The notes under the pieces were generated by a model. That model searched no databases. It saw only the letters and a list, made by a program, of their open reading frames with translations, and was not told the DNA's origin. 64,000 bases of DNA, taken from Escherichia coli. GTDB taxonomy: Bacteria > Pseudomonadota > Gammaproteobacteria > Enterobacterales > Enterobacteriaceae. A program made the translations under genes and the position numbers. Position 1 is the stretch's first letter. The number at the start of each line of letters is the position of its first letter. The stretch lies in NCBI RefSeq assembly GCF_029227855.1, contig NZ_CP074356.1; one strand, written 5' to 3'. Below are positions 3,244 through 61,791 of this stretch, piece after piece.

Positions 3244-4563
3244 ATGTTGCCGTTTCTGAAAGCGCCTGCCGATGCGCCATTAATGACTGATAAATATGAA
3301 ATTGATGCCCGCTATCGCTACTGGCGTCGGCATATTCTGCTGACCATCTGGCTGGGTTACGCGCTGTTTTACTTCACGCGGAAAAGTTTTAACGCCGCCG
3401 TACCAGAAATCCTTGCTAACGGCGTGCTCAGCCGTAGCGATATCGGCCTGTTAGCGACCCTGTTTTACATTACCTATGGCGTGTCGAAGTTTGTCTCCGG
3501 CATTGTCAGCGATCGCTCAAATGCCCGTTATTTTATGGGGATAGGGCTTATCGCCACGGGCATTATCAACATTCTGTTTGGCTTCTCGACGTCGCTATGG
3601 GCGTTTGCCGTACTCTGGGTGCTGAACGCCTTTTTCCAGGGCTGGGGTTCACCGGTGTGTGCGCGTCTGTTAACCGCCTGGTATTCTCGTACCGAGCGCG
3701 GCGGTTGGTGGGCATTATGGAACACGGCGCATAACGTCGGCGGCGCACTCATTCCCATTGTGATGGCAGCGGCTGCACTACATTACGGCTGGCGTGCCGG
3801 GATGATGATTGCTGGTTGTATGGCGATCGTCGTGGGAATTTTTCTCTGCTGGCGGCTGCGCGATCGCCCGCAGGCGTTAGGTTTACCGGCGGTCGGTGAA
3901 TGGCGACACGACGCGCTGGAGATAGCTCAACAACAAGAAGGGGCAGGGCTGACGCGTAAAGAGATCCTCACCAAATATGTGTTGCTGAATCCGTATATCT
4001 GGCTGCTTTCGTTTTGCTATGTGCTGGTCTATGTGGTCCGGGCGGCGATCAACGACTGGGGCAATTTGTATATGTCCGAGACGCTGGGCGTCGATCTGGT
4101 CACGGCGAATACGGCAGTGACGATGTTTGAACTGGGTGGATTTATCGGTGCGCTGGTAGCGGGTTGGGGCTCGGACAAATTGTTTAACGACAACCGAGGG
4201 CCGATGAATTTGATTTTCGCCGCCGGAATTTTGCTTTCAGTCGGCTCCCTGTGGCTGATGCCATTTGCCAGCTACGTGATGCAGGCAACCTGCTTCTTCA
4301 CCATTGGTTTTTTTGTCTTTGGCCCACAGATGTTAATCGGTATGGCGGCGGCAGAGTGTTCCCACAAAGAGGCGGCAGGGGCGGCGACGGGGTTTGTCGG
4401 CTTGTTTGCTTATCTGGGGGCGTCGCTTGCTGGTTGGCCGCTGGCGAAAGTACTCGATACCTGGCACTGGAGCGGATTTTTTGTGGTTATCTCTATCGCC
4501 GCCGGGATTTCCGCACTGCTGTTACTGCCCTTTTTGAACGCCCAGACACCGCGCGAAGCGTGA
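3244..4563 (+). CDS. uhpC: Glucose-6-phosphate sensor/transporter-like membrane protein UhpC
   Basis: MFS protein paralogous to UhpT; 439 aa from ATG 3244. Confidence 0.9.
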   Translation: MLPFLKAPADAPLMTDKYEIDARYRYWRRHILLTIWLGYALFYFTRKSFNAAVPEILANGVLSRSDIGLLATLFYITYGVSKFVSGIVSDRSNARYFMGIGLIATGIINILFGFSTSLWAFAVLWVLNAFFQGWGSPVCARLLTAWYSRTERGGWWALWNTAHNVGGALIPIVMAAAALHYGWRAGMMIAGCMAIVVGIFLCWRLRDRPQALGLPAVGEWRHDALEIAQQQEGAGLTRKEILTKYVLLNPYIWLLSFCYVLVYVVRAAINDWGNLYMSETLGVDLVTANTAVTMFELGGFIGALVAGWGSDKLFNDNRGPMNLIFAAGILLSVGSLWLMPFASYVMQATCFFTIGFFVFGPQMLIGMAAAECSHKEAAGAATGFVGLFAYLGASLAGWPLAKVLDTWHWSGFFVVISIAAGISALLLLPFLNAQTPREA

Positions 4564-4597
4564 TGCATCTCACCTTTTCACTTCATATCCGGCAAAA

Positions 4598-4700
4598 CTA
4601 AGAAATTTTCCAGGTTTTGCCTGGACGCTATCTCAGGCCTGATTTGCTGCTGATTTTTACAATGCATGCCTCACGCAGGTATTCATTTCAGGAGTAACCC
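4598..4700 (+). promoter_or_regulatory. uhpT promoter region with inverted repeat TTCCAGG-N5-CCTGGAC (UhpA-responsive region)
   Basis: Inverted repeat seen ~80-100 bp upstream of the uhpT ATG; the uhpT promoter is known to be UhpA- and CAP-dependent. Confidence 0.45.
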
Positions 4701-6092
4701 ATGCTGGCTTTCTTAAACCAGGTTCGCAAGCCGACCCTGGACCTTCCGCTCGAAGTGCGGCGCAAAATGTGGTTCAAACCGTTCATGCAATCCTACCTGG
4801 TGGTCTTTATCGGCTACCTGACGATGTACCTGATTCGCAAGAACTTTAACATCGCGCAGAACGACATGATCTCGACCTACGGGTTGAGCATGACGCAGCT
4901 GGGGATGATCGGCCTGGGTTTCTCCATCACTTATGGCGTGGGTAAAACGCTGGTTTCCTACTACGCCGACGGCAAAAACACCAAACAATTCCTGCCGTTC
5001 ATGCTGATCCTGTCTGCCATTTGTATGCTGGGCTTCAGTGCCAGTATGGGCAGCGGCTCGGTTAGCCTGTTCCTGATGATTGCCTTCTACGCCTTAAGCG
5101 GCTTTTTCCAGAGTACCGGCGGTTCGTGCAGTTACTCCACCATCACCAAATGGACGCCGCGTCGTAAACGCGGGACATTCCTCGGTTTCTGGAATATTTC
5201 TCACAACCTTGGCGGTGCAGGCGCAGCAGGTGTGGCGCTGTTCGGGGCAAATTACCTGTTCGATGGCCATGTCATCGGCATGTTTATCTTCCCGTCGATT
5301 ATCGCGCTGATTGTCGGTTTTATCGGCCTGCGTTACGGCAGCGACTCCCCGGAATCTTATGGCCTCGGCAAAGCTGAAGAACTGTTCGGCGAGGAGATCA
5401 GCGAAGAGGACAAAGAGACAGAATCTACCGATATGACCAAGTGGCAGATCTTTGTTGAGTATGTGCTGAAAAACAAAGTGATCTGGCTGCTGTGCTTCGC
5501 CAACATTTTCCTCTATGTGGTACGTATTGGTATCGACCAGTGGTCAACCGTATACGCGTTCCAGGAACTGAAACTCTCTAAAGCGGTGGCGATTCAGGGC
5601 TTTACGCTGTTTGAAGCTGGTGCGCTGGTCGGTACGCTGCTGTGGGGCTGGCTCTCTGACCTGGCGAACGGTCGCCGTGGCCTGGTGGCCTGCATCGCGC
5701 TGGCGCTGATTATCGCCACGCTCGGTGTGTATCAACATGCCAGCAACGAATATATCTATCTGGCTTCTCTCTTTGCGCTGGGTTTCCTGGTCTTTGGCCC
5801 GCAATTGTTGATTGGTGTGGCTGCTGTTGGCTTTGTACCTAAAAAAGCGATTGGCGCTGCCGATGGTATTAAAGGCACCTTTGCTTACCTGATTGGTGAC
5901 AGCTTTGCCAAGTTAGGTCTGGGAATGATTGCCGATGGGACGCCGGTATTCGGCCTTACCGGCTGGGCAGGCACCTTCGCCGCACTTGATATCGCCGCGA
6001 TTGGTTGTATCTGCCTGATGGCGATAGTGGCGGTGATGGAAGAACGCAAAATCCGCCGCGAGAAAAAAATTCAGCAGTTGACAGTGGCATAA
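4701..6092 (+). CDS. uhpT: Hexose-6-phosphate:phosphate antiporter UhpT (MFS)
   Basis: 463-aa ORF recognised as UhpT. Confidence 0.95.
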
Positions 6093-6110
6093 ACGTAACT
6101 GGTGACTTTT

Positions 6111-6136
6111 GCCCGGCATGACGCCGGGCTTTTTTA
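6111..6136 (+). terminator. Rho-independent terminator after uhpT
   Basis: GCCCGGC-atgac-GCCGGGC hairpin followed by a T run. Confidence 0.6.
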
Positions 6137-7903
6137 TTATTCCGTGACTTCCAGCGTAGTGAAGGCAAACTTCTCGCCATCAAATAGCCCCTGACTGGTT
6201 AGTTTTAGCGCGGGGATCACTGGCAGAGAAAGAAACGCCATCTGAATAAACGGCTCATCGGGTAACGGACCGCATTCACGGGCGGCGGCTTTCAAGGCGT
6301 CAATTTGTTCCGCCAGCGACTGCGCCGTGTCGGTGCTCATCAGGCCGGCAATGGGCAACGGCAGATGACTTTGGACCTGGCCGTTACGTACCACGCACAG
6401 CCCGCCGCCATCCTGAATCACCTGATTGACCGCCAGCGCCATCTCTTCGGCACTGCGACCGATCACCACAATATTATGGCTGTCATGGCTGACCGTCGCA
6501 GCCAGCGCACCTTCATTCAGTCCAAAGCCGCCAAGCAAACCACAAGCCGGAGCCAGCCGTTGCCCGTAACGCTCAAGTACGGCAATAAAGCTCACATCAT
6601 CGCGATCAAAACCATTTTCGCTGTAGACGCTGGAGTGGGAGTGCGTAATCAATTCGTTATGGATGACGTCAATGACCCGATAGCGTTTTCCGGGCGTAAA
6701 TTGCAGGGCAAAGTCGCTGGCGGAAACTGGCTGGCGGGCAATGGTGTTGCCATATGGCGGAGCGGATTGTGCCAGTCTCGCCGACTCTTCCGCCTGTAAG
6801 GTTTGCGCATCAATCGGCTCGCCTTTCACCAGTACCTGCTGCACCGTGACCTTACGCGCATCGCTCAACAGGACGATATCGGCCTGCTTGCCGGGTGCCA
6901 GTAAGCCGAGGTGATTCAGACCAAAGTGGCGCGCCGTCGACCAGCTGGCGACGCGATATGCCACATGCAGCGGCACATTGTGTTGTTCGATCAGGCGGCG
7001 AATTAAGGCATCGATGTGTCCTTCATGGGCGATCTCCCACGGGTTACGGTCATCGGTACAGAGCATGCATTGCGGGCTGTTAAATTCGTTGATCAACGGT
7101 GCCAGCGCGTTGAGATTGCGGGCAGCGGACCCTTCGCGGATCATCAACGACATGCCGAGTTGTAATTTCCGGCGTCCTTCTTCCAGCTGATAACTTTCGT
7201 GGCAGTTTTCAATACCCGCAGTAATATAGGCGTTAAGTTCTTTACCACCCAAACCCGGGCAGTGACCGTCCAGCGTCAGGTGGCGAAATGCATCCAGTTT
7301 ATCGAGCAGCGCATTCTGCCCGCTAATTACGCCAGGGTAGTCCATCATTTCTGCAAGGCCGGTAACCTGCGGATGGTCCCGCCAGGCGAGCATCTGTTCA
7401 AGGGTAAAACTGGCACCGTTAACATCGCAGCCTTCCAGGGCGGGTACGCAAGAGCTGACCTGTAAGTACTGGTTTTGCCTTGCCTGTTCGGCACAGCGGG
7501 CAAACCAGGCGAATCCGGCTTCTCCCATCACGTTGACGATTTCATGAGGGTCGCAAATAACGGTCGTCAGGCCGCGCGGCAGGGTAGCGGTTTCAAAAGT
7601 GACCGGCGTCATCATGCTGGATTCAATATGCAGGTGAGCATCAATAAACCCTGGCACCGCCGTTGCGCCGCGAGCATCAATCCGCTGCAAAGCCGGAGCA
7701 TCAGCGTATTCTGCGCCAACACCGGCAATGTAACGTCCTTTAATCACAATTGGGCCGGAAATTTCTCCGCCATTGATCAGGTCGAGAATAGAGACATTAT
7801 CAATAATATAATCGGCAACAGCGTCGCCACGGGAAACGGCTAACAATTCCTGGTATTCAGCCCGGCTAATGTGATGAAATTTATGGTTAATAGAATTATT
7901 CAT
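6137..7903 (-). CDS. ade: Adenine deaminase
   Basis: 588-aa ORF with amidohydrolase metal-binding motifs ([11 protein letters not shown]); recognised as Ade (YicP). Confidence 0.92.
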
Positions 7904-8077
7904 ATTTTTCTCATTTTGATTTTATCAATTTGATTATTATTTATCATAAAGAAACGTCGCGAGATTATTAAAGAATATCCATTAATGTGCAATTGAAATG
8001 TGATAATTATCACTGAACCGTTGTTGTCATTTGTTTTACAAAAGCAAGGGATTAAATCTCCTCCAATGGACAAAAAA
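7904..8077. promoter_or_regulatory. AT-rich divergent ade/adeP promoter region
   Basis: Very AT-rich 170-bp spacer between divergent genes; ade is known to be a cryptic, H-NS-silenced gene. Confidence 0.4.
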
Positions 8078-9412
8078 ATGAATAATGACAATACCGATTA
8101 TGTGAGTAATGAATCAGGGACGCTTTCGCGATTATTTAAACTACCTCAGCATGGGACCACCGTCCGCACAGAATTGATTGCGGGGATGACCACTTTTTTA
8201 ACCATGGTGTACATCGTTTTTGTGAACCCGCAAATCCTCGGCGCGGCACAAATGGACCCGAAAGTGGTGTTTGTTACCACCTGTTTGATTGCCGGTATCG
8301 GCAGTATTGCGATGGGGATATTTGCTAACTTACCCGTGGCGCTGGCTCCGGCAATGGGGCTGAACGCCTTCTTTGCCTTCGTGGTCGTGGGGGCGATGGG
8401 CATCTCCTGGCAGACCGGGATGGGCGCAATATTCTGGGGCGCAGTTGGACTATTTTTGCTCACGCTGTTTCGTATCCGGTACTGGATGATCTCCAACATT
8501 CCCTTAAGTTTACGTATTGGTATCACCAGCGGAATTGGATTATTTATCGCCTTAATGGGATTAAAAAATACTGGCGTTATTGTCGCCAATAAAGACACGC
8601 TGGTGATGATTGGCGATTTAAGTTCTCACGGCGTGTTGTTAGGTATTTTAGGGTTTTTTATTATAACCGTGTTGTCATCACGTCATTTTCATGCCGCGGT
8701 GCTGGTTTCTATTGTGGTGACGTCTTGCTGTGGATTATTTTTCGGTGATGTTCATTTTAGCGGCGTCTATTCCATTCCGCCTGATATTAGCGGCGTCATT
8801 GGTGAAGTAGATTTGAGCGGCGCGTTAACACTTGAACTCGCCGGTATCATTTTCTCCTTTATGCTGATCAACCTATTTGATTCATCAGGAACATTAATTG
8901 GTGTAACTGATAAAGCGGGCTTAATAGATGGTAACGGTAAATTCCCCAATATGAATAAGGCGCTGTATGTTGATAGCGTCAGTTCGGTGGCGGGTGCGTT
9001 TATCGGCACCTCGTCTGTTACTGCCTATATTGAAAGTACTTCTGGTGTGGCAGTCGGTGGCCGCACGGGGCTGACTGCGGTTGTGGTTGGCGTTATGTTC
9101 CTGTTGGTTATGTTCTTCTCACCGCTGGTGGCGATGGTTCCTCCTTACGCAACCGCCGGAGCGTTAATCTTTGTTGGCGTGCTGATGACTTCGAGCCTGG
9201 CGCGCGTTAACTGGGATGATTTTACCGAATCGGTGCCTGCGTTTATTACCACGGTGATGATGCCCTTTACTTTCTCGATCACCGAAGGGATTGCACTCGG
9301 CTTTATGTCGTACTGCATCATGAAAGTGTGCACCGGGCGCTGGCGCGATCTGAACCTGTGTGTGGTGGTGGTCGCAGCTCTGTTTGCACTGAAGATTATT
9401 CTGGTGGATTAG
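8078..9412 (+). CDS. adeP: Adenine permease (NCS2/AzgA family)
   Basis: Polytopic membrane protein; start set at MNNDN (444 aa); ORF track start 8000 is over-extended. Confidence 0.88.
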   Translation: MNNDNTDYVSNESGTLSRLFKLPQHGTTVRTELIAGMTTFLTMVYIVFVNPQILGAAQMDPKVVFVTTCLIAGIGSIAMGIFANLPVALAPAMGLNAFFAFVVVGAMGISWQTGMGAIFWGAVGLFLLTLFRIRYWMISNIPLSLRIGITSGIGLFIALMGLKNTGVIVANKDTLVMIGDLSSHGVLLGILGFFIITVLSSRHFHAAVLVSIVVTSCCGLFFGDVHFSGVYSIPPDISGVIGEVDLSGALTLELAGIIFSFMLINLFDSSGTLIGVTDKAGLIDGNGKFPNMNKALYVDSVSSVAGAFIGTSSVTAYIESTSGVAVGGRTGLTAVVVGVMFLLVMFFSPLVAMVPPYATAGALIFVGVLMTSSLARVNWDDFTESVPAFITTVMMPFTFSITEGIALGFMSYCIMKVCTGRWRDLNLCVVVVAALFALKIILVD

Positions 9413-15571: not shown

Positions 15572-15715
15572 AAAATTGACATATAACAATTTGATTTAAA
15601 TCGTTTATATTTTTCTATTCTAATTCATTTATACACATCCTTATACATATAATATCTATCGATTAATTTTTACACGCATCTTCACGCACGTTAACTCAGG
15701 AAAAAAATTTTTTTT

Positions 15716-16012
15716 TCGGAAGAACTGTTCACACTGTTCACCTTTCTGTTTTCTCCTTTTATTTCAGTTGGATAGGTGGTGAATAATGGGTGAAGGGTGA
15801 ACATTCGATTCTTCACCTCCGGCATTCTGCCGGTGTGACTCATACCGGTGATTAATCCCCCGTGCTGAAATCACACCGGAAGAAAAAAGTTTTTTTTGAT
15901 TTGATTGTTCACACTGTTCACCTTTCATTTTTCTCTTTTAATTTCAGTGTGATAACGGGTGAATATACGGTGAAGGGTGAACAGTGGATTGTTCACCTTC
16001 GGGGAATTCAGG
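15716..16012. repeat. crr-like region: two ~110-bp direct repeats with TGTTCACC/GGTGAACA octamer iterons
   Basis: Block gttcacactgttcacctttc...ggtgaagggtgaaca occurs twice (about 15722 and 15903), immediately downstream of the alpha gene; P4 crr has two 120-bp repeats with alpha-binding type I iterons. Confidence 0.7.
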
Positions 16013-16047
16013 GATAAAAAAAGACCGGCAGATGCCGGTCACGTGGG

Positions 16048-18381
16048 TCAGGTTGTTGCAGGGTCGTCACATTTTGGCAGCCAGTCGCCGTAGCTTTCCT
16101 CTTTCAGCGTCAGGTTGGTCTGTATCCCCTGTTTGGTATGGCGCTTCTCGTAATTCAGTCCGTATTCCTTCAGCATCACCGGCAGCCCCAGCCCGAACAT
16201 TTTCAGACTGAGTACATTCCGGTAGCCGTTTGCCTCCATGTAGGCCAGATAGGCGTGATAGAGGTATTTACGGTAATTGCGCGGGATGATACTGGCGTTC
16301 CCCATATACATGCCGCTGGTCTGCGGCAGGGTTTCCAGATAGCCGATAAAATCAAACGTCGGGTCGGCATCCCGTTTGATGTTCAGCGCCTCGTCTGAGT
16401 TCTGCTGGGACTGAAGCAGTGACCGGGCGAGCATCGGGTCGCTGAACTTCTGCATCAGGTGACGCACGATGACCGCCAGCTCGCGGGTGATTTTGTCCTT
16501 AAGTTGCGGGTCGCGCTCCTGCGGGGCTATCTGTTCCGGGAAGTGAATAATCACCCGCCGGCGTGACACGCCGCCGCTGCGGTCGGTGAAGCGCATCGGG
16601 TTATTGTTCACGGCCAGAATCACCGCCGGGATATGCGTGGAGTACGCATCCCGGTATTTCGGGTCAACGGACACTGCATCGCCGCCGGTGATGGCCTTGA
16701 GTCCGGCTCCGTCGCCGCTCCATTTTTCCTGGTCCGGCAGGCGTATCAGTGAGAAGCCAGTTAACGCGGCACGTTCACGCGGGGATTCCAGCGTCTCAAT
16801 GGTGGCCGACGTGGCGTTATCCTCCCCGGCCAGCAGGGTGGCTATTTCGGCCATGATACTTTTGCCGCTGCCGCCGGGACCGGTCACCTCCAGAAAGAGC
16901 TGCCAGTCGTAGCGGTTTGCCAGCACCATAAACAGTGCGGCCAGAATCACGTCGCGTTTTTCCGCACGGCCACCGGCGGCACGGTCAAGCCAGCGCCAGA
17001 ACGCGGGGGCGTGGGTCTCCAGCGTTTCCCCTTCCACCGGCGGGGTGAAATCCACATCGCACAGGGTGCGCATCCAGTGTGACGGACTGTGCGGGTGGAA
17101 CGTGCCGTTCTGCGTGTCGAGCACGCCGTTACGAAAGCCAATCAGGCGGCGGGAGGGGGCTTCCTGCTGCGGAATAATCAGCTTCAGGGTGTCCACCACG
17201 GAGGCCACCTTCCCGGAGGAGAACGGCGCGCGCAGACGCTGAAACAGCCCGGCCACATCCCGGGCAAAGTCCTGTGGCGGCAGCACCTTCCAGACACCAT
17301 TTTCATAGCGGGACAGAAGCTGGCCGTTGGCATCGACCGCGAGCGCCTCGCCGTAATGCTCATAGATACGCATGGCCTTTTCGCTGGTACTCATGGCGGA
17401 AAACTCCGCTTCGCTCATGGTGTCGAACGGGCTTTCAGCCGGTGGCCGGATGGCATCATAAATGGCCTTACGGGTGGCTTCCCCGCCGTACTGCGTGAAG
17501 GCATCATTCCAGTCACCGAAGACCGGCGGCAGGGCAACAACACCTTCACACGCATCTGCGGCTGCGGCGGCTTTTTTCTGGCCGTCACCACTGAGGTCAC
17601 GGTCAGCGGCAAGGACAATCTGACAGGCGGGGTGCTTCTGCCGGGCAAGGCTGGCCAGAGAAAGGAGGTTCACGGAAGAAAGCGCCACCATCACCGTTTC
17701 ACCGGTCAGGTGATGTACGGTAAGTGCGGTCGCGTATCCCTCCGCTATCCACAGACGTTTTCCGGCCTGATTCTGTCCTTCAAGGGTGTGACAGGTGCCC
17801 CTGACCTGTCCGCCTTTCAGGGTGCGCTTACGGCCGTCAGCACTGATTAACTGAAGGTTAACCAGTTCGCCGCTGTCGTCATACAGTGGCACCACAAGGT
17901 CACCGGCGCGCCAGCTCACGCCACCGGCTCTGTGTGTGCCGGTCAGCATCCGGCATTCCCGGCCGGGAAAGCCCTTGCGGGTCAGGTAGGCGTTACCGGT
18001 TCCGGTACGGGTTTTCGCCATCAGGGTTTGTGCCAGTGCGGCGGCGTTCTTCCGGGCAGCGTCTGTTTCAGCACCGGCGGCGGCCGTCACTGCCGGGTCA
18101 GCCGGGGGCAGGCTGCCGGTCACGGCAGCCACCTTTGCGGCCGCGTCGGACGGGGAAACACCAAACACCTTTTCAACCAGTTTCAGGCCGTCACCGGCAC
18201 CACACTGATTGCAGTACCAGGTGCCGCGCCCCTCCCTGTCATCAAAACGGAAGCGGTCACTCCCGCCACAGACCGGACAGGGCTGATGACGGTTCTTCAG
18301 CACCTGAATCCCCAGCGCCGGGAGAATACGCGGCCAGTGGCCGAGCGCATGGCTGACGGTGGCGGTTACGTTCATTTTCAT
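16048..18381 (-). CDS. P4 alpha-like DNA primase/helicase
   Basis: 777-aa ORF; N-terminal zinc-finger primase motif CPVCGGSDRFRFDD...YCNQCG; Walker A GPGGSGKS in the C-terminal helicase part; same length as P4 alpha. Confidence 0.9.
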   Translation of the reverse strand: MKMNVTATVSHALGHWPRILPALGIQVLKNRHQPCPVCGGSDRFRFDDREGRGTWYCNQCGAGDGLKLVEKVFGVSPSDAAAKVAAVTGSLPPADPAVTAAAGAETDAARKNAAALAQTLMAKTRTGTGNAYLTRKGFPGRECRMLTGTHRAGGVSWRAGDLVVPLYDDSGELVNLQLISADGRKRTLKGGQVRGTCHTLEGQNQAGKRLWIAEGYATALTVHHLTGETVMVALSSVNLLSLASLARQKHPACQIVLAADRDLSGDGQKKAAAAADACEGVVALPPVFGDWNDAFTQYGGEATRKAIYDAIRPPAESPFDTMSEAEFSAMSTSEKAMRIYEHYGEALAVDANGQLLSRYENGVWKVLPPQDFARDVAGLFQRLRAPFSSGKVASVVDTLKLIIPQQEAPSRRLIGFRNGVLDTQNGTFHPHSPSHWMRTLCDVDFTPPVEGETLETHAPAFWRWLDRAAGGRAEKRDVILAALFMVLANRYDWQLFLEVTGPGGSGKSIMAEIATLLAGEDNATSATIETLESPRERAALTGFSLIRLPDQEKWSGDGAGLKAITGGDAVSVDPKYRDAYSTHIPAVILAVNNNPMRFTDRSGGVSRRRVIIHFPEQIAPQERDPQLKDKITRELAVIVRHLMQKFSDPMLARSLLQSQQNSDEALNIKRDADPTFDFIGYLETLPQTSGMYMGNASIIPRNYRKYLYHAYLAYMEANGYRNVLSLKMFGLGLPVMLKEYGLNYEKRHTKQGIQTNLTLKEESYGDWLPKCDDPATT

Positions 18382-18395
18382 GGTGTTGTTCTCCT

Positions 18396-18716
18396 TCAGT
18401 GCAGTACCGGCGCTTTTATGTGACGGGCACAGAGTTCATCCATCACAACCAGCCCGAGAAAGGACAGCGACGGCGCGGCCTTCAGGGGGCCGGATTCCAT
18501 TAAATCTTCCAGCAGGGCACAGGCTATCTGACGCCCTTTTTCCTCACCGTGCTGGCGCAGATAAAAGCCTTCCAGCTCAGCGGCGATGGCCGCCTCCAGT
18601 GATTCAAGGGTGAGATGCGGGTAGCGGTGCTGACGTTCGCACACGGTCAGCCAGGCACAGGCGACAGCGCGACGGTAAAGGGCAGCGCGTAAGACGGGCG
18701 GTAAGGGTGTTTTCAT
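18396..18716 (-). CDS. Hypothetical protein (P4-like left operon, 106 aa)
   Basis: ORF immediately upstream of and co-directional with alpha; no recognised motif. Confidence 0.5.
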
Positions 18717-18851
18717 TTGCTTTCCTCCCTGTGACAGATGACTGCATTCCGTGCCGGTTGCATTAACTGATAAGGCATATCTGCGTCTCCTGAAGACGTG
18801 CGTATCCCTGCGCGAATACGCACATTTAATTTTTCGGGTGTCGTTTTTTAA

Positions 18852-19307
18852 TTACAGATAATTGCGGTAACTGTTATCCGGGGTGATTTCCGGGTCAGGC
18901 TCCGTGCGGGGAATTTCCCGCCATTCCCGCGCCACCTGTGCCGCCCGGCTGACCGGAACAGGGTCCTGCGGGTAAATATCCAGATATTTCTCCCGCCATT
19001 TCTGTAATTCCGGGTCTCCGGCCATTTCTTTCAGTACCGCATGCCGGTTTACGGGGCTGCGTCTGAACAGGTCAGGACGGTCACAGGTAAATTCCCGCAG
19101 AAAACGCCCCAGCGGGATGTCTGTGGTGCGCCCGTCAGCGAGGATACGCACAAGGATACTGAATTTACGGCGGTACGGGTTCCAGACAATGTCCGGGCAG
19201 CGGTACGGCATTTCCCACGGAATACCGTCTTCCAGAATGCCGACCACGGCCACATCGGGAAAACCGGCAGAACGGTAAATCTCACCGGGCTGGGGAAAAT
19301 CAAACAT
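18852..19307 (-). CDS. Hypothetical protein (151 aa; same length as P4 orf151)
   Basis: Co-directional ORF in the left operon; protein-like composition. Confidence 0.55.
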   Translation of the reverse strand: MFDFPQPGEIYRSAGFPDVAVVGILEDGIPWEMPYRCPDIVWNPYRRKFSILVRILADGRTTDIPLGRFLREFTCDRPDLFRRSPVNRHAVLKEMAGDPELQKWREKYLDIYPQDPVPVSRAAQVAREWREIPRTEPDPEITPDNSYRNYL

Positions 19308-19872
19308 GCGTCCTGTCTCCCCGGTCTTTCTGCTGGGCGAGAAAATCGCGGCACAGGCCTTTGGCTTTCAGCTCATTCAGCACAAAATCAATATCTTCAT
19401 TCAGGTAACTGAAAATATGCGGAATGTAGAGCTGATGCAGGCCGGAGAGTTCACGGTGAATCAAATCACCCCCAACAAACTGGGATACGGCGCTGGCGCG
19501 GTTGAGCTTATGGTAAGCCTCAATGCTGAGGTGTTCACGGGCGTCATGACGTGCTGAGACGGTCTGAGGGGCTTTTTTATTACGCACGGGACACCTCCAC
19601 CACCGGCAGACGGGCAGCAAGGGAGAGCACATAGTCACGGACAAGGGAACGGCGGGCACTGCGTTCATCACCGGCCACGGTGCGAAGCATACAGATACGG
19701 GGATGACGGTCTGCGCGACGGACAGCCGCAAACACAAAGACAAATTCAGGGTGTGAGGGGGTAAGGGTTGTAGCCATGATGGCAGCCTCCTGTGAATAGC
19801 AAATAACGCTATCGCCGGAGTTCTCACGCTCGATGGCGATAGCCCAGACGGGGGTGAGAATACCGGCTTCAC
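19300..19872 (-). CDS. Hypothetical protein, start uncertain
   Basis: C-terminal ~85 aa look protein-like; the N-terminal part is P/S/L/R-rich and overlaps another frame; putative GTG start. Confidence 0.3.
19580..19777 (-). CDS. Hypothetical small protein (65 aa; C-terminal part of the 214-aa ORF)
   Basis: Internal ATG ([12 protein letters not shown]...) gives a compact ORF ending at the stop at 19580; the upstream part of the 214-aa ORF overlaps vis and is probably not coding. Confidence 0.25.
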
Positions 19873-20175
19873 AGGATACCGGCCAGCCCGGAGGCTGCCC
19901 CGCCTGAGCTACCATTGACTCTGCGGCATAATGAGCGGACGCGGGCAGGATGCACGGAATGCCATCTGCACGACTGACCACACACCACACCATAATCTGG
20001 CGCTCTGTGGCATTGATTGCGACACAAAAAAAGACGCGTGGCGCGTCATATGTCGCCTGTGAATTGCTCGGGTTCTCACGCCCGGCTGCCGATTTTGCGG
20101 CAGCGGAAAAACTATATCCGCAAATGCCGGAAAAAGGCAAGCCAGAAAAAGGGAGTTTTTGCAGAGCGGGCATCA

Positions 20176-20442
20176 TCATGCGTCGTACCCCCGTTTGCGT
20201 CCGGCAATGCGTCCGGCCATCCATGCGGTGACTTCAGAGTGCAGCCAGGCCACATTTTTACCGCCAAGACTCACCTGCGGCGGAAATTCCCCCTTACGGA
20301 TGAGTTCATAGATGGTCGAGCGTGACAGGCCGCACAGGTGCATCACTTCCGGCAGACGTAAAAAACGCTCCTGCGTGATGTCCGGCAGCGGCATCAGTGG
20401 CGTCACTGGGGCGGGAGACGGGGAAGAAAAAACAGATTGCAT
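20176..20442 (-). CDS. AlpA/Vis-family phage transcriptional regulator (88 aa)
   Basis: AlpA-type HTH signature FLRLPEV...[15 protein letters not shown]; same length as P4 Vis (orf88). Confidence 0.78.
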
Positions 20443-20545
20443 CGGGCTACCTCGTTAATGTCCATACAGCACCGGATAAGTCCGTCCGGCTTCGGGTAGC
20501 GCTTTATTTTGTGAATATTTTCGGCAGACGCAACAGGGGGGGATT

Positions 20546-20563
20546 TGTTCCGGCAGTCTTACA
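20546..20563. promoter_or_regulatory. TGT-N12-ACA site (Ogr/Delta-type activator box), candidate leftward late promoter
   Basis: TGTtccggcagtcttACA ~110 bp upstream of the vis start; P2/P4 late promoters carry TGT-N12-ACA centred near -55. Confidence 0.4.
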
Positions 20564-20719
20564 ATGGCTGTGTATTTTTTGTACATCAGCGCCAGATAGC
20601 TTTAAAACGCTCTGGAAGGAGCTGGAAAAAATTATAGTGAAATACAAATTGTTTTTTCTTATTTATTTCAGTGAATTAATAAAAATAAAAAGTAATGAAC
20701 AGCACAAAAAGCCCATTAA

Positions 20720-20830
20720 CGGGTGAACAGTGGTGAACAGACGGTGAACAGTCATTACTGCGATTGTTCACCCTTTAACTTACTGTATTACTTATCTTTT
20801 TTCTTATGGTGAACAGAGGTGAACAGTAAA
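20720..20830. repeat. ori-like cluster of GGTGAACAG iterons
   Basis: Five direct copies and one inverted copy of GGTGAACA(G) within ~110 bp, ~4.8 kb from the crr-like repeats, as in P4. Confidence 0.65.
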
Positions 20831-20904
20831 ATATAAAAAAACAAACAGTAAGCCGGTTTTTCCTGCGACCTTTTCCTGGCTTGCCGGTCTGAGGATGAGT
20901 CTCC

Positions 20905-20922
20905 TGTGTCAGGGCTGGCACA
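20905..20922. promoter_or_regulatory. TGT-N12-ACA site, candidate Psid late promoter activator box
   Basis: TGTgtcagggctggcACA centred ~80 bp upstream of the sid ATG. Confidence 0.45.
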
Positions 20923-20994
20923 TCTGCAATGCGTCGTGTTGTTGTCCGGTGTACGTCACAATTTTCTTAACCTGAAGTGACGAGGAGCCGGAAA

Positions 20995-21729
20995 ATGTCT
21001 GACAACACCATCCCTGAATATCTGCAACCCGCGCTGGCACAACTGGAAAAGGCCAGAGCCGCCCATCTTGAGAACGCCCGCCTGATGGATGAGACCGTCA
21101 CGGCCATTGAACGGGCAGAGCAGGAAAAAAATGCGCTGGCGCAGGCCGACGGAAACGACGCTGACGACTGGCGCACGGCCTTTCGTGCAGCCGGTGGTGT
21201 CCTGAGCGACGAGCTGAAACAGCGCCACATTGAGCGCGTGGCACGCCGGGAGCTGGTACAGGAATATGACAATCTGGCCGTGGTGCTGAATTTTGAACGT
21301 GAACGCCTGAAAGGGGCGTGTGACAGCACGGCCACCGCCTACCGGAAGGCACATCATCACCTGCTGAGTCTGTATGCAGAGCATGAGCTGGAACACGCCC
21401 TGAATGAAACCTGTGAGGCGCTTGTCCGGGCAATGCATCTGAGCATTCTGGTACAGGAAAATCCGCTCGCCAACACCACCGGCCATCAGGGCTACGTCGC
21501 ACCGGAAAAGGCTGTCATGCAGCAGGTGAAATCATCGCTGGAACAGAAAATAAAACAGATGCAAATCAGCCTCACCGGCGAGCCGGTTCTCCGGCTGACC
21601 GGACTGTCAGCGGCAACACTCCCGCACATGAATTATGAGGTGGCAGGCACACCGGCACAGCGCAAGGTGTGGCAGGACAAAATAGACCAGCAGGAAGCAG
21701 AGCTTAAGGCCAGAGGGCTGCTGTCATGA
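20995..21729 (+). CDS. sid: P4 Sid-like capsid size determination (external scaffold) protein
   Basis: 244 aa from MSDNTIPEY; coiled-coil-rich; first gene of the sid-delta-psu arrangement. Confidence 0.78.
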   Translation: MSDNTIPEYLQPALAQLEKARAAHLENARLMDETVTAIERAEQEKNALAQADGNDADDWRTAFRAAGGVLSDELKQRHIERVARRELVQEYDNLAVVLNFERERLKGACDSTATAYRKAHHHLLSLYAEHELEHALNETCEALVRAMHLSILVQENPLANTTGHQGYVAPEKAVMQQVKSSLEQKIKQMQISLTGEPVLRLTGLSAATLPHMNYEVAGTPAQRKVWQDKIDQQEAELKARGLLS

Positions 21730-22226
21730 TTTACTGCCCGTCGTGTGGACATGTTGCTCACACCCGTCGCGCACATTTCATGGACGATGGCACCAAGATA
21801 ATGATTGCACAGTGCCGGAATATTTATTGCTCTGCGACATTTGAAGCGAGTGAAAGCTTTTTCTCTGACTGTAAAGATTCAGGAATGGAATACATTTCAG
21901 GCAAACAGAGATACCGCGATTCACTGACGTCGGCCTCCGGCAGTATGAAACGCCCGAAAAGAATGCTTGTTACCGGATATTGTTGTCGGAGATGTAAAGG
22001 CCTTGCACTGTCAAGAACATCGCGGCGTCTGTCTCAGGAAGTCACCGAGCGTTTTTATGTGTGCACGGATTCGGGCTGTGGTCTGGTGTTTAAAACGCTT
22101 CAGACCATCAACCGCTTCATTGTCCGCCCGGTCACACCGGACGAACTGGCAGAACGCCTGCATGAAAAACAGGAACTGCCGCCAGTACGGTTAAAAACAC
22201 AATCATATTCGCTGCGTCTGGAATGA
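21726..22226 (+). CDS. delta: P4 Delta-like late-gene activator (tandem Ogr-type zinc fingers)
   Basis: 166 aa; two Ogr-like Cys motifs (CPSCGH...CRNIYC and CCRRCKG...CTDSGC); start overlaps sid stop. Confidence 0.88.
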   Translation: MIYCPSCGHVAHTRRAHFMDDGTKIMIAQCRNIYCSATFEASESFFSDCKDSGMEYISGKQRYRDSLTSASGSMKRPKRMLVTGYCCRRCKGLALSRTSRRLSQEVTERFYVCTDSGCGLVFKTLQTINRFIVRPVTPDELAERLHEKQELPPVRLKTQSYSLRLE

Positions 22227-22299
22227 GGGCTGCCGGTTAACCCCGGCCGTCGCCGCACACCGTATTTTTATTCTTCAGCATGATGAGAAAGAGATAACG

Positions 22300-22872
22300 A
22301 TGGAAAGCACAGCCTTACAGCAGGCCTTTGACACCTGTCAGAATAACAAAGCAGCATGGCTGCAACGCAAAAATGAGCTGGCAGCGGCCGAACAGGAATA
22401 CCTGCGGCTTCTGTCAGGAGAAGGCAGAAACGTCAGTCGCCTGGACGAATTACGCAATATTATCGAAGTCAGAAAATGGCAGGTGAATCAGGCCGCCGGT
22501 CGTTATATTCGTTCGCATGAAGCCGTTCAGCACATCAGCATCCGCGACCGGCTGAATGATTTTATGCAGCAGCACGGCACAGTACTGGCGGCCGCACTGG
22601 CACCGGAGTTGATGGGCTACAGTGAACTGACGGACATTGCCCGAAACTGTGCCATACAGCGTGCCACAGATGCCCTGCGTGAAGCCCTTCTGTCCTGGCT
22701 TGCGAAGGGGGAAAAAATTAATTATTCCGCACAGGATAGCGACATTTTAACGACCATCGGATTCAGGCCTGACGCGGCTTCGGTGGATGACAGCCGTGAA
22801 AAATTCACCCCTGCGCAGAACATGATTTTTTCGCGTAAAAGTGCGCAACTGGCATCACATCAGTCTGTGTAA
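22300..22872 (+). CDS. psu: P4 Psu-like polarity suppression / capsid decoration protein
   Basis: 190-aa ORF following delta; same length and position as P4 Psu. Confidence 0.78.
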   Translation: MESTALQQAFDTCQNNKAAWLQRKNELAAAEQEYLRLLSGEGRNVSRLDELRNIIEVRKWQVNQAAGRYIRSHEAVQHISIRDRLNDFMQQHGTVLAAALAPELMGYSELTDIARNCAIQRATDALREALLSWLAKGEKINYSAQDSDILTTIGFRPDAASVDDSREKFTPAQNMIFSRKSAQLASHQSV

Positions 22873-23036
22873 AACTCCCCGAAAATCCGTCCGATTTTAC
22901 TGAAAAAAGCCATGCATCGATAAGGTGCATGGCTTTGCATGCGTTTCCCTGCCTCATTTTCTGCAAACCGCGCCATTCCCGGCGCGGTCTGAGCGTGTCT
23001 GTGCAACTGCATTAAAACCGCCCTGCAAAGCGGGCG

Positions 23037-23055
23037 GGCGAGGCGGGGAAAGCAC
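23037..23055 (+). other. P2/P4-type cos site
   Basis: Exact 19-mer GGCGAGGCGGGGAAAGCAC, the P2/P4 cohesive-end sequence as I recall it, between psu and the cargo operon. Confidence 0.78.
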
Positions 23056-23076
23056 TGCGCGCACGAGAGTAAAACA

Positions 23077-23739
23077 TTACTCAATTGAAAAATGTAACAT
23101 TCCTCTCTCTCTCGGTGTAATGGTGTTGGGATGAACTAACCGTTCCATTTCAAAACCAAAATCATGATAAGCAGTATTATAAAAAGAGCTTAAAATAAAT
23201 TTCACAAACGTTACCGGACATAATGGTGACGACAATGGTATCCGGCAATTTTTAAACTGACCTAGGGTTAGGTGTGCTGCTGGATGAATAACATCATTAG
23301 CGTCATCAGGGGCATAATCCACTCGTATCGGAACGGGTAAAATTGATTTTTGGACAATGTCAGCATAAAAGTTGCTTTCGTCTAAATATAACTCAGGGTC
23401 ATTCTGGAATGATTCGTAATTAGGCGCGGGGAAATAACATAGTCTTTCTTTTACAAGTTTCATTCGACGATCAAACTGAAATAAAAGATGGAGTAACCCA
23501 CCATCTAATAATTTGATATTATATTGCCTTTTTTCGTCCAAGAAGTTATAGATATCAACATACTCAATATTTCTTAATGCAATTGAAGTATCAGCGAATC
23601 CGCTATAGCTGACATAATAATATTCTTTATCCCGTGTTATTACAGGATAGTTTTGTGCGTCACTGATACCCACTGATATCAGATGAGATGTGATTTTTCT
23701 AATTGCTGCGCAAATGCTACTTGAGTTCATCTCATTCAC
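23077..23739 (-). CDS. Hypothetical protein, second gene of the satellite cargo operon (candidate defense partner/effector)
   Basis: 220-aa ORF; start overlaps or lies 1 nt after the stop of the upstream helicase-like gene; AT-rich; no recognisable catalytic motif or TM segment. Confidence 0.7.
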   Translation of the reverse strand: MNEMNSSSICAAIRKITSHLISVGISDAQNYPVITRDKEYYYVSYSGFADTSIALRNIEYVDIYNFLDEKRQYNIKLLDGGLLHLLFQFDRRMKLVKERLCYFPAPNYESFQNDPELYLDESNFYADIVQKSILPVPIRVDYAPDDANDVIHPAAHLTLGQFKNCRIPLSSPLCPVTFVKFILSSFYNTAYHDFGFEMERLVHPNTITPRERGMLHFSIE

Positions 23740-25828
23740 CCTTCAGTTGCTTAATTAAAGCAAGGCGTAATTCTTCTGGTATATCTTCAACTCTAACTTG
23801 TCCATCCAATAGAACCATGAGATTATGGGCGTTCAATTTAGCTTGGTGTACTCTTTTTCTCTCTTGAGAAGTCATATCCCTGTTCACCAGTCGCATTTTT
23901 TTACGCTCTGCTTCTGTTGGGTATGTAAATTCCAGTTTAAATCCTCTTTGTTTCACCTCATTGTATTCGTTAATCAGGCCATCAAAGGAAGAACCCACAC
24001 CACATACACGAAGCCATGCTTTAGTTCTTGTCATTGCAGTAAAAAGGATATTTCTACGCTTTGCCAGTTCATAATCCACGTTGCAATAATGAGCATCCAT
24101 GATGTATACCATAGCTGCTTCGTTTCCCTTTGCTCTGAATATGGATGTAAATGTTACACTATTGTCTGAGAAAAACTCATCAGGAGAGCTTGTAATTCCA
24201 GCTATAGATGTATTAATTCCGTTTTGGAATAAAAGGTCACGCAGATAACCTACTTCATTTCTCATACGTATTGTATCTGGGTGAATTACAACAATGTCGC
24301 TAGGTAATATCTCTTCCTCATGAATATTTTTAAATATTTCCTGCGCAATCCAATTAGATTGAGAATGCTTGTCTTCAAATTTAACAAACTGGATCATCTC
24401 ATCAATTGAGTTATGTGCACTCAATAGGGATGGGCTAGATTTCGTTGTCCTTGATAATATAACCTCCTTTCCCTCAACTAATTCACCATCTATTTTTTCA
24501 TAACCAATCTCTGTCCATAATCCTTCAAAATCAAACATCTGAATTATTGGTTTATGATAAATACCAAACCCTAAAGCATGAGCCGTGGTTAAGATTGGGC
24601 CTGGATTTCGATAACAAATGTCTAAAGTTATATCTTGTTCTTCACTGGTGAAACTAACAATTGGTTTTCCATGCTCGTCTACTCCCCAAATTTGTTCAGG
24701 AGAAGGCATGGATGAATCCCCAAGATTTTGTAATTCATCATAAGCGTAAACTAATCGTTTCTTTTCCCCTAGCAAAGAATAACATATGCGGAGAAACTCA
24801 ATTGAAAAATCTTGAGCCTCATCAATAAGGATGAAATCATATAATTTCTTATCTTCTTTTTTATTATCGAGGAAGTTCTTACAGGCAGCCTGAAAAGGTG
24901 TTTCATTAAATTCTGCAAGACGACGTGCGCCGTTATAATCGTAATAAGGTATATTATGTGCCACACATGCGTTGTAATATAAACCTTCTGTTTTAGAGCC
25001 GCCCCAGGCATGAATAATGTCTACGTTATCCCAATCAATTCCATTATCATCTGCGAATGCTGAGACTAAATGTTTTAGTTGCTCTTTGAGAGAGCGACTA
25101 TTGAAAGTAACTGCTATTTTCCAGTGAGGATTTTGTGAGTGTATATGTGCAATTTTTCGAGCGAGAACAATAGTCTTACCTGAGCCAGCAAGCCCACGAA
25201 TCCTTTGGACATTATCAATATTGACCAAGACGGCAGTCGTTTGACTAGAATCAAGAGTGGCAAGTGAATTCTCCAATTTTTTTAGTACGCTACCCTTTGA
25301 GTCAATCTGTCTGACATAGCTTCTTTTTCTCTTGGGCTTCAATTTTGAAAGTGATTGAACATGGGATAGTAAAGTTTCAAGAAGGGAACCATCATCCCAG
25401 GTAATGTCATTGAGAATAGATAATATTTCATCAACATTGGAACTAATGCTTAAACCACTGTCACAATCAAAATCATCAATATTTATACAGTTTGGTGCGA
25501 AAACAATACTGTTCACAGGTACGTTTAATATTCTGTTTTTAGTCAGTGCTTTTACTTCAGAAAGTTTTGCGACGAATTTCATGTGCATTTCGTCAATGAT
25601 ATCAATATCATCTTGGGTTAACTCTCTTTCCTCATTGAAATGGAAAATGACAACACCATGCTTTGATGAGCAAATTAGACCATCAAGAGTAACATTGTTT
25701 TCGCTTAGAAAAATAACAGGAAAACCGCGATAATAATATCCAGTTATATCATTTATCTTTCTTATTGAATTTTCTAGAATATCAGAAACAGTATGATTCT
25801 GAGGTTTCATTCCCAATATTTCAATCAT
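23732..25828 (-). CDS. SF1 (UvrD-like) helicase-family ATPase with ~200-aa N-terminal domain of unknown function; candidate defense protein
   Basis: 698 aa; Walker A GLAGSGKT (res ~212-219), motif II LIDEAQDF (res ~334-341), C-terminal FRAKGNEAAMVYI and FTAMTRTKAWL resembling UvrD-like helicase C-terminal motifs; GGAG Shine-Dalgarno 8 nt before the ATG; start overlaps the int stop. Confidence 0.85.
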   Translation of the reverse strand: MIEILGMKPQNHTVSDILENSIRKINDITGYYYRGFPVIFLSENNVTLDGLICSSKHGVVIFHFNEERELTQDDIDIIDEMHMKFVAKLSEVKALTKNRILNVPVNSIVFAPNCINIDDFDCDSGLSISSNVDEILSILNDITWDDGSLLETLLSHVQSLSKLKPKRKRSYVRQIDSKGSVLKKLENSLATLDSSQTTAVLVNIDNVQRIRGLAGSGKTIVLARKIAHIHSQNPHWKIAVTFNSRSLKEQLKHLVSAFADDNGIDWDNVDIIHAWGGSKTEGLYYNACVAHNIPYYDYNGARRLAEFNETPFQAACKNFLDNKKEDKKLYDFILIDEAQDFSIEFLRICYSLLGEKKRLVYAYDELQNLGDSSMPSPEQIWGVDEHGKPIVSFTSEEQDITLDICYRNPGPILTTAHALGFGIYHKPIIQMFDFEGLWTEIGYEKIDGELVEGKEVILSRTTKSSPSLLSAHNSIDEMIQFVKFEDKHSQSNWIAQEIFKNIHEEEILPSDIVVIHPDTIRMRNEVGYLRDLLFQNGINTSIAGITSSPDEFFSDNSVTFTSIFRAKGNEAAMVYIMDAHYCNVDYELAKRRNILFTAMTRTKAWLRVCGVGSSFDGLINEYNEVKQRGFKLEFTYPTEAERKKMRLVNRDMTSQERKRVHQAKLNAHNLMVLLDGQVRVEDIPEELRLALIKQLKGE

Positions 25829-27011
25829 TTTGAACTCCGGTAGATAAATTCATCAAAAAATCCGAGTATTTTTGCATCATATATTTTCTTTTATCAAGAT
25901 ACAAAGCATGATTATATGTGCCTCGGATAGTATTCTTATCAACATGTGCGAGCTGAATCTCAATCCATGCGCTCTCAAATCCCATTTCATGAAGAATTGT
26001 CGATAGTGTATGCCTAAAACCATGACCAGTAGTTCTTCCCTTATAACCTAATGATTCAATAACTTGGTTTACACTTTCTTTGCTTATCGGTTTTCTACGA
26101 TCATTTCTGCCAATAAAAACATAGGGATAGTCCGATGTTATCGGTTGTAGTTGTTTAAACAGTTCAATTACCTGAGATGATAAAGGTACTATATGTGGCC
26201 GACGCATTTTCATCCGTTCAGCAGGTATTTCCCAGATACCTTTTATCAAATCAATTTCACTCCAAGTTGCAAAACGCATTTCCTGCGTCCTGACTCCTGT
26301 CATCATTAGGATCTTGGTTGCGTTTTTGGTAATAATACTTCCAGTATATGACTCTAGATCTCTAACAAAATGAGGTAGCTCTTCCGCGGATAAAAACGGA
26401 TGATGCCTTTGCTTGGGAATAGCCAAAGCGATTGCTAAATCAGGCGCCGGATTGTATTCAGCACGGCCAGTGATGATCGCGTAGCGAAACACTTCTCCAC
26501 ATCGTTGGCGAACTTTTCTGGTTTTCTCCAACGCTCCACGTTTTTCGATGCGCTTAAGTACTTCAAGCAGTTCTAATGGCTTAATTTCAGATATTGGGCG
26601 TTTACCAATGAAAGGAAAAACGTCCTGTTCGAATGTTTTAATAATTTCCTCCCGATAAGCGATAGTCCAGCGATCTGCTTTTGCTGCATGCCATTCTCTG
26701 CTAACTGACTCAAAAGAATTTTCAGTTGATAATTTTTGAGCAAGTTTCTGAGCCTTCCGTTCTTCTACTGGGTCTATGCCGTTTGCTACCTGCTTACGTG
26801 CAGTATCACGTTTCTCTCGTGCTTCTGCGAGGCTAACAAGTTCGTAACTACCAAATGACATTAGCCGTGCTTTACCGGCGAAACGAAAGCGGAAGCGCCA
26901 GCCCTTTGAACCGTCTGGCTTGATGAGTAGTGACAAACCGTGCCCATCATTCATTGTATATGGTTTGTCTTGTGGTTTTGCGCGTTTGATTTGTATATCG
27001 GTTAGAGCCAT
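25821..27011 (-). CDS. int: P4-type tyrosine integrase
   Basis: 396 aa; catalytic HGFRHT...(R)...Y motifs in the C-terminus; N-terminal P4-integrase-like region; lies next to selC. Confidence 0.93.
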   Translation of the reverse strand: MALTDIQIKRAKPQDKPYTMNDGHGLSLLIKPDGSKGWRFRFRFAGKARLMSFGSYELVSLAEAREKRDTARKQVANGIDPVEERKAQKLAQKLSTENSFESVSREWHAAKADRWTIAYREEIIKTFEQDVFPFIGKRPISEIKPLELLEVLKRIEKRGALEKTRKVRQRCGEVFRYAIITGRAEYNPAPDLAIALAIPKQRHHPFLSAEELPHFVRDLESYTGSIITKNATKILMMTGVRTQEMRFATWSEIDLIKGIWEIPAERMKMRRPHIVPLSSQVIELFKQLQPITSDYPYVFIGRNDRRKPISKESVNQVIESLGYKGRTTGHGFRHTLSTILHEMGFESAWIEIQLAHVDKNTIRGTYNHALYLDKRKYMMQKYSDFLMNLSTGVQND

Positions 27012-27173
27012 GTGTATAACTGAAAACTGCGTATGAAGATTCTATACACATTACTATACATATTTTTCGCGGATTCAGGGAGATGATCTCGGACTATTAC
27101 GGACAAGATGATTATTTATGATATTGAATATAAAGGATTTTATGGAGTATCTCGGAACTGGCTGGATGAAGTT

Positions 27174-46459: not shown

Positions 46460-46479
46460 TAACTGTATTTATATACAGT
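46460..46479. promoter_or_regulatory. LexA (SOS) box upstream of dinD
   Basis: aACTGTatttatatACAGtt matches the CTGT-N8-ACAG consensus. Confidence 0.7.
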
Positions 46480-46637
46480 TGTGAGTATCTCACGTTCTCA
46501 GTGTGCTGGGCAAAAAAACATCGCAAAATCTGGAGCAGGCACGCAAAACAGAATTGAAGTTGCGGGGAAGAAAAATGCCGCTCTGTTTGAGTGGGCGGCA
46601 TTTGTGAAGGCTGAAAAGTAAGAATTAGTGTTACGAG

Positions 46638-60052: not shown

Positions 60053-60068
60053 AATTGAGAAAAGTTAA

Positions 60069-61064: not shown

Positions 61065-61073
61065 ATTACTCTT

Positions 61074-61766
61074 ATGATTACAAGTATACGTTATCGCGGC
61101 TTCTCATTTTATTACAAAGATAATGATAATAAATATAAAGAAATCTTTGATGAAATACTGGCCTATAATTTTAAAACAGTAAAAGTATTACGTAATATTG
61201 ATGATACCAAAGTATCATTGATTGATACGAAATATGGTCGCTATGTTTTTAAAGTCTTTGCCCCGAAAACGAAAAGGAATGAACGTTTTTTAAAATCTTT
61301 TGTAAAAGGTGACTACTATCAGAATTTGATCGTTGAAACCGATCGTGTCAGAAGTGCAGGTCTTACTTTTCCTAATGATTTTTATTTTCTGGCTGAGCGT
61401 AAAATTTTCAACTATGCCAGTGTTTTTATTATGCTTATCGAGTATGTCGAGGGCGTAGAGCTCAATGATATGCCGATTATTCCAGAAAATGTTAAAACAG
61501 AAATTAAGGCTTCAATGGAAAAATTGCATGCCTTAAATATGCTATCGGGCGACCCACACCGGGGTAATTTTATCGTTAGTAAAGATGGTGTCAGGATAAT
61601 TGACCTATCCGGTAAAAGCTGTACGGCAGAGCGTAAAGCTCGTGATCGTCTGGCCATGGAACGTCACCTGGGTATTGCCAACGAAATAAAAGATTATGGC
61701 TACTATTCAGTAATCTACAGAACCAAACTACGCAAATTTATTAAAAAATTAAAAGGCAAAGCGTAA
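61074..61766 (+). CDS. waaY: LPS core heptose(II) kinase
   Basis: 230-aa kinase-like ORF in the conserved waaY position. Confidence 0.8.
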   Translation: MITSIRYRGFSFYYKDNDNKYKEIFDEILAYNFKTVKVLRNIDDTKVSLIDTKYGRYVFKVFAPKTKRNERFLKSFVKGDYYQNLIVETDRVRSAGLTFPNDFYFLAERKIFNYASVFIMLIEYVEGVELNDMPIIPENVKTEIKASMEKLHALNMLSGDPHRGNFIVSKDGVRIIDLSGKSCTAERKARDRLAMERHLGIANEIKDYGYYSVIYRTKLRKFIKKLKGKA

Positions 61767-61791
61767 ACCACACAGTCAAAACGGAACCAAC

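Follow-up and report, generated by a model that had tools for sequence, protein, structure and literature searches.

The divergent regulatory region between adeD and adeQ of Escherichia coli very probably behaves in this strain as the literature describes it, with silencing by H-NS and activation by CRP, and it also has a conserved block at the start of adeD. The locus has been described before, and so have its silencing by H-NS, the insertion elements that activate it and its CRP site; nothing found here is new in kind. What the analysis adds is that the A+T-rich spacer is old and has been kept as a regulatory module, in which two elements stand out by their sharp conservation. What it corrects is the identity of the partner gene, which is adeQ, and the view of ade, which is reported to be CRP-activated rather than simply silent. 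The gene identities, the composition, the identity to K-12, the conservation and the spacing were established in this analysis, and the H-NS silencing, the activation by insertion elements and the binding and activation by CRP are taken from the literature. The window, by which we mean the whole stretch of DNA that was analysed, is 64,000 bp long, and its annotation was transferred from a collinear genome, that of strain 165. The two genes and the spacer between them are:

6137–7903, minus strand: adeD (ade, yicP), intact coding sequence of adenine deaminase, 588 aa (NF007457 equivalog; adeD annotation in strain 165 and K-12).
7904–8077, no strand: divergent intergenic spacer between adeD and adeQ, 174 bp, G+C 0.27 or 73% A+T (composition; identity to K-12).
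8078–9412, plus strand: adeQ (yicO, b3664), coding sequence of an NCS2-family adenine permease, 444 aa (adeQ annotation; PF00860).

The adeD reading frame matched the NF007457 profile from end to end (1266.3 bits with a cutoff of 768, span 1–588 of 588) and TIGR01178 with 840.8 bits (cutoff 472.5), which places the product among the adenine deaminases of the amidohydrolase superfamily, above the curated equivalog cutoff. Together with the adeD annotation in identical genomes, this bears out the ade gene that the first-pass annotation had read in this interval. A 2.3-kb query around adeD was 100% identical to many complete E. coli genomes, where the features in this region are uhpT, adeD and adeQ, and the gene order of K-12 MG1655, uhpT, adeD (b3665), adeQ (b3664), yicN and nepI, is also that of the window. 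The product of the divergent gene matched PF00860 with 155 bits, and its position corresponds to b3664 in K-12 and to adeQ in strain 165, so that it belongs to the NCS2 family. Its function as an adenine permease is attributed to Papakostas 2013 in the list given in PMC5210515. The first-pass annotation had called this neighbour adeP, which was a mistake; every annotated genome match has adeQ at this place, and adeP is the same as purP, a gene separate from adeQ (PMC3809563; PMC13274399).

At the other end of adeD, the small RNA UhpU (b4829, from the 3' end of uhpT) maps to 5872–6137 on the plus strand when its K-12 coordinates are carried over. The hairpin of its terminator is at 6111–6129, and the convergent genes uhpT and adeD are just 44 bp apart, since the T-run of the terminator finishes on the stop codon of adeD (6137–6139).

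The first-pass annotation had described a very AT-rich divergent spacer of about 170 bp, and this agrees with the 174 bp found here. The whole window has a G+C of 0.498, and 0.99% of its 174-bp windows are as low as the spacer. Of the annotated intergenic regions that measure 40 bp or more, 22 in all, the spacer has the lowest G+C, and the runner-up has 0.371. The A+T-rich tract also enters the first 50 bp or so of both adeD and adeQ, and it reaches its minimum, 0.14 G+C in 50-bp windows, at 7901–7950:

About 7851–8125, no strand: the A+T-rich tract over its whole length (50-bp windows with a G+C of 0.34 or less), the presumed H-NS target, with the role of H-NS taken from the literature.

Being well below the G+C of the window, the spacer has the A+T-rich composition of an H-NS-silenced region. 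It is conceivable that the low G+C is the mere look of a compact divergent promoter, with no specific role in silencing, as intergenic regions elsewhere in the window are generally below the coding sequences in G+C (0.37–0.52) and the promoter scan found several -10-like hexamers within the spacer. The spacer, however, sits 10 points under the lowest value among the remaining 21 regions, and the literature, as far as it is related in the citing papers, assigns the silencing to H-NS. We therefore regard a mere promoter composition as highly unlikely.

The silencing is known from K-12. PMC2753651 and likewise PMC13274399 cite Petersen et al. 2002 for the silencing of the cryptic ade gene by H-NS and for its activation by insertion elements. 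The ade-yicO region of K-12 (Petersen, Moller and Valentin-Hansen 2002, J Biol Chem 277:31373) is the same locus, and because the spacer is 100% identical to that of MG1655, the experiments made in K-12 apply to the window. The differences between the present strain and K-12 are one synonymous-looking base early in adeQ and an extra island at selC, 7.5 kb away, and there are none in the spacer itself. The first-pass annotation was thus right in taking the AT-rich divergent promoter as ordinary for this locus, with the spacer identical to K-12 and the reading already published. In the explanation that we prefer, the 73% A+T of the 174-bp spacer and the A+T-rich first 50 bp or so of both genes would together be the substrate of H-NS. 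Following the literature, H-NS would hold the expression of adeD very low in ordinary laboratory growth, and the silencing would be relieved by mutation of hns, or by an insertion element in or near the spacer.

Several reports describe changed expression or new insertions at the locus. In two strain backgrounds, cocultures that cross-feed adenine became enriched in IS insertions upstream of adeD (PMC13274399). Two further reports support the silencing indirectly. In one, yicP seems to be switched on by the promoter of a kan cassette that reads outward from a yicO deletion (PMC3809563). In the other, induction of TosR in CFT073 raises yicP (4.4 in the expression table), and several fimbrial loci rise with it (PMC5956150). 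A scan for the high-affinity H-NS nucleation motif TCGATAAATT gave two matches with 2 mismatches near the spacer (7878–7887 and 7919–7928), which is at the level of chance; with up to 2 mismatches allowed there are 88 matches in the whole window and 73.7 expected, barely above chance. Silencing of adeD by H-NS through the spacer is the published reading and a plausible one, on the basis of the literature and the composition.

The bgl operon and flhDC are other E. coli loci that H-NS silences and IS elements can activate. They share with ade an A+T-rich control region and very low expression in the laboratory, activation by mutation of hns or by a nearby IS1 or IS5, and a CRP site in the promoter region (PMC2753651). 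Unlike bgl and flhDC, ade is a single gene, and it shares its control region with a divergent transporter gene.

H-NS can also be thought of as a xenogeneic silencer here, in which case the spacer would mark a recently acquired foreign gene pair. The very low G+C of the spacer (0.27) would fit this, and so would the somewhat low G+C of adeQ, 0.484. On the other hand, adeD has a G+C of 0.547, which is normal for E. coli, and the A+T-richness is confined to the spacer and not a property of the genes. The pair is furthermore present in 5408–5417 of the 5426 complete E. coli genomes, in all cases with at least 95% identity. A single degenerate DNA pattern, written for the active-site peptide of adenine deaminase, served to fetch loci of other species, in which adeD and adeQ were then located. 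The divergent pair was found in Escherichia, Citrobacter, Kluyvera, Cedecea, Pluralibacter, Atlantibacter and Buttiauxella, and in 11 other species of Enterobacteriaceae the spacer is 172–200 bp long with a G+C of 0.26–0.30. Edwardsiella and Morganella have the pair with a less A+T-rich spacer, 0.32–0.36 and 0.44–0.48 in G+C. The divergent arrangement and its A+T-rich spacer are therefore old and conserved, and not a recent foreign insertion. A recent acquisition is already largely refuted by this comparison across genera, and we consider it extremely unlikely.

In C. freundii (7132–7989 of locus L029) and Atlantibacter sp. RC6 (about 5087–6232 of locus L053), adeD was found downstream of genes for an MscS-type channel and a Methyltransf_10 protein. 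Other species of Citrobacter and Atlantibacter keep the arrangement in which adeD is linked to adeQ, and the unlinked adeD may be a second copy or the result of a relocation.

Within E. coli, 26 of 5408 genomes had no single match that covered 80% of a 474-bp query (7754–8227), and the matches were split in 14. One genome was inspected among those with split or partial matches, that of strain 600055, where an IS1-associated deletion (4384–7923 of locus L063) has removed the 5' end of adeD, the whole spacer and the 5' end of adeQ. This allele is a natural loss of both genes and not an activating insertion. In the O157:H7 strain NE1127, adeQ is annotated as a frameshifted pseudogene, and 4 SNPs occur in the spacer, at positions 7926, 7936, 7955 and 7961 of the window, all of which spare the CRP site.

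The alignment of the spacers from 12 species of Enterobacteriaceae, the window and 11 others, showed mostly free variation. There are two sharp exceptions, the CRP site and a block next to the start of adeD, here called block 1. The first of them is:

7999–8014, no strand: CRP site TGTGA-taatta-TCACT (22-mer 7996–8017, centre 8006.5), from the match to the consensus, the conservation and the SELEX and EMSA literature.

The sequence TGTGATAATTATCACT at this position has 1 mismatch to TGTGA-N6-TCACA and is the sole match in the 64-kb window with at most 1 mismatch. One match where 1.68 are expected has no significance by count alone, and what gives the site its weight is where it lies, how well it is conserved and what the literature reports. 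The alignment shows invariant half-sites around a variable N6. In no fewer than 7 of the 8 genera outside Escherichia, TGTGAT and TCACTGAA are identical. The centre of the site is 103.5 bp from the ATG of adeD and 71.5 bp from that of adeQ. In most species it is found at -103.5, give or take 1, from the ATG of adeD, and in Pluralibacter at -93.5, nearer by exactly 10 bp or one helical turn. A CRP-like site is present at -101.5 in C. freundii and at -102.5 in Atlantibacter RC6, the two loci in which adeD has no adeQ beside it.

That there is a CRP site in this spacer is already known. Genomic SELEX placed the yicO/ade spacer among the divergent targets of CRP (PMC3105977), and a study from 2021, with transcriptomics of a crp deletion across carbon sources and EMSA, lists both adeD and adeQ under 'Crp activation' in the wild type (PMC8085971). 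The locus is like the other divergent pairs with a single central CRP site (PMC3105977), with one site of the TGTGA-N6-TCACA type and with both genes reported to be activated by Crp (PMC8085971). The first-pass annotation held that ade is silent in wild-type E. coli unless the H-NS silencing is relieved. As far as the silencing goes, this is supported by the papers that cite the original work, but as a whole it is overstated and too simple, since the spacer is a target of CRP and both genes are reported to be Crp-activated in the wild type. The literature and the conservation together suggest that cAMP-CRP at the site in the middle of the spacer would raise the transcription of both genes on poor carbon sources.

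On the adeQ side of the CRP site, two further elements could be recognized:

8036–8042, plus strand: -10-like element TTTAcAA for adeQ, from its conservation across genera.
8068–8070, plus strand: Shine-Dalgarno GGA for adeQ, from the invariant alignment columns G180, G181 and A182.

The bases T8036, T8037, A8038 and A8040 are kept in 8 of 8 other genera, and there are zero indels between the CRP site and TTTAcAA. What we infer at this locus are the promoter classes, the start positions of transcription and, as described below, the operator role of a dyad. The adeQ promoter would be of class II and dependent on CRP, with a start near 8048–8049 (about 3,843,818 in K-12) and CRP at about -41.5/-42.5. 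On the adeQ strand, a simple scan detected nothing that resembles a sigma-70 promoter, which is to be expected of a class II promoter and is not positive evidence for one. At the adeD promoter, CRP would be a phase-dependent activator of class I type acting from upstream, as the fixed distance of 103.5 bp to the ATG and the shift of 10 bp in Pluralibacter both fit with this. Transcription of adeD is predicted to begin near 7936, which would put CRP at about -70.5, or near 7912, with CRP at about -94.5. The start of adeQ is taken to be at 8078 and not at the ATG at 8066, because the conserved GGA seven bases upstream of 8078 supports it.

The second of the conserved elements, and the dyad that overlaps it, are:

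7907–7934, minus strand: conserved block 1, 28 bp, abutting the start of adeD (12-species alignment, per-site conservation).
7922–7936, minus strand: 15-bp dyad TAATCA-aat-TGATAA, with its centre at -26 from the ATG of adeD.

Read in the ade sense, block 1 is ATCAAATTGATAAAATCAAAATGAGAAA. Only three of its 28 positions vary among the 12 aligned species, and 19 fully invariant bases form an uninterrupted run. Each locus has a 22-mer of the block exactly once, in every case upstream of adeD. Within block 1 there is an extended -10-like TGaTAAAAT at 7927–7919, with a promoter-like match of the scan ending at 7919, and a Shine-Dalgarno-like GAG at 7912–7910. A perfect dyad, TTGAT-N3-ATCAA, is found at 7916–7928 and has no other perfect copy in the 64 kb. 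Relatives of the 15-bp dyad (ATATCA-aaa-TGATAA) are seen at -30 to -38 in Edwardsiella, Serratia sp. DD3 and Enterobacillus. In adeD itself, a comparison of 8 of these species left just 3 invariant positions among 146 four-fold degenerate sites, and 8.4% of the third codon positions were invariant. Judging from these alignments, block 1 is near-invariant across genera although the synonymous sites of adeD are saturated. It is most likely the core promoter or leader of adeD together with the ribosome-binding site, overlapped by a putative operator for a further factor, the dyad TAATCA-N3-TGATAA.

Other explanations for the conservation of block 1 were tried and rejected. A leader peptide could be encoded in E. 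coli by an ORF of 63 codons (8091–7900 on the ade strand), and its frame is lost in E. whittamii, Atlantibacter, Buttiauxella and Pluralibacter. A mini-ORF for the peptide MRKI (ATG AGA AAA ATA TGA, 7900–7914 on the minus strand) has a stop codon that overlaps the start of adeD (ATGA), and this relation of the frames is not conserved in other genera. As the frames of the upstream ORFs are broken in other genera, the constraint on block 1 is not of a coding nature. Neither does it appear to be a structured leader RNA or riboswitch; the fold has -3.5 kcal/mol and z = +0.92, no better than shuffled sequences, and the spacer has zero matches to Rfam families.

The dyads were also compared with the sites of known regulators. 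The consensus of FNR is TTGAT-N4-ATCAA, and an FNR site was rejected as the dyad TTGAT-N3-ATCAA falls one base short of it. Inspection of the spacer by eye gave a partial WATCAA core alone for IHF, no good 19-mer for Fur, and for a PurR box the half-site AAACGT at 7952–7957 alone. A genomic SELEX peak of PlaR (YiaJ) has been reported within the adeQ/adeD spacer (PMC6958661). The PlaR box ATnTGAAACnnnGTTCAnTT has zero matches in the spacer at up to 3 mismatches, and the peak may reflect mere affinity for A+T-rich DNA. No match was found when the dyad was compared with known regulator motifs, and where adeD is not beside adeQ, none of the neighbours was informative as a linked regulator gene. 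These neighbours are an MscS-type channel, an RNA methyltransferase (Methyltransf_10), a BhsA-like protein and, in the case of Serratia, a protein resembling Ros/MucR.

The conserved elements raise the question of whether adeD is truly cryptic. The low expression in the laboratory could mainly be a matter of missing activation, with little cAMP-CRP on glucose and a putative specific regulator acting at the dyad beside the start codon, and H-NS would then be a secondary, non-specific damper on an A+T-rich promoter. The CRP site kept at a fixed spacing across genera and the Crp-dependent expression of adeD and adeQ reported in the wild type (PMC8085971) are in line with this. So is the 28-bp dyad block, which is near-invariant at the core promoter or leader while the synonymous sites are saturated, and an intact adeD in at least 5382 of the 5426 E. 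coli genomes argues for use of the gene. Against this, mutation of hns or insertion of an IS element is by itself sufficient to activate ade, according to secondary citations (PMC2753651, PMC13274399). Insertions upstream of adeD are also selected repeatedly when adenine is available (PMC13274399), which implies that the wild-type expression of adeD is limiting, and the dyad has neither a linked regulator gene in other species nor a match to a known motif. We find missing activation as the main cause possible but rather unlikely, and we prefer silencing by H-NS combined with activation by CRP.

As a more tentative and still less likely idea, block 1 with its dyad may be the operator of a dedicated regulator, which sets the natural conditions for the expression of adenine deaminase, and ade would then be conditionally induced and not a silenced relic. 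If the block or the dyad does bind a specific regulator, the occasions on which E. coli makes use of ade, for two decades known as a cryptic gene, would be explained.

Some observations were also made in other parts of the window. At 59600–64000, downstream of waaA/rfaQ, there are G+C troughs of 0.22–0.30 that are longer and lower than that of the ade spacer, presumably belonging to the LPS core (waa) gene cluster. The island at selC is an insertion of 11.6 kb at 15572–27171, beside the gene of tRNA-Sec (selC), and it is absent from strain 165. At least 80% of its length is present in just 25 of the 5426 complete E. coli genomes. Among the genes annotated in it are those of an integrase, a DUF2290 protein, a DEAD/DEAH helicase and a primase-helicase zinc-binding protein. 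The insertion may be a mobile island of small size, and a defence system is perhaps part of it. Strain 165 is otherwise near-identical to the present strain, and its dinD-yicC interval carries a prophage-like island of about 51 kb, with an ISKox3 transposase, an Abi protein and an integrase, which is missing from the same interval in the window (46474–46638).
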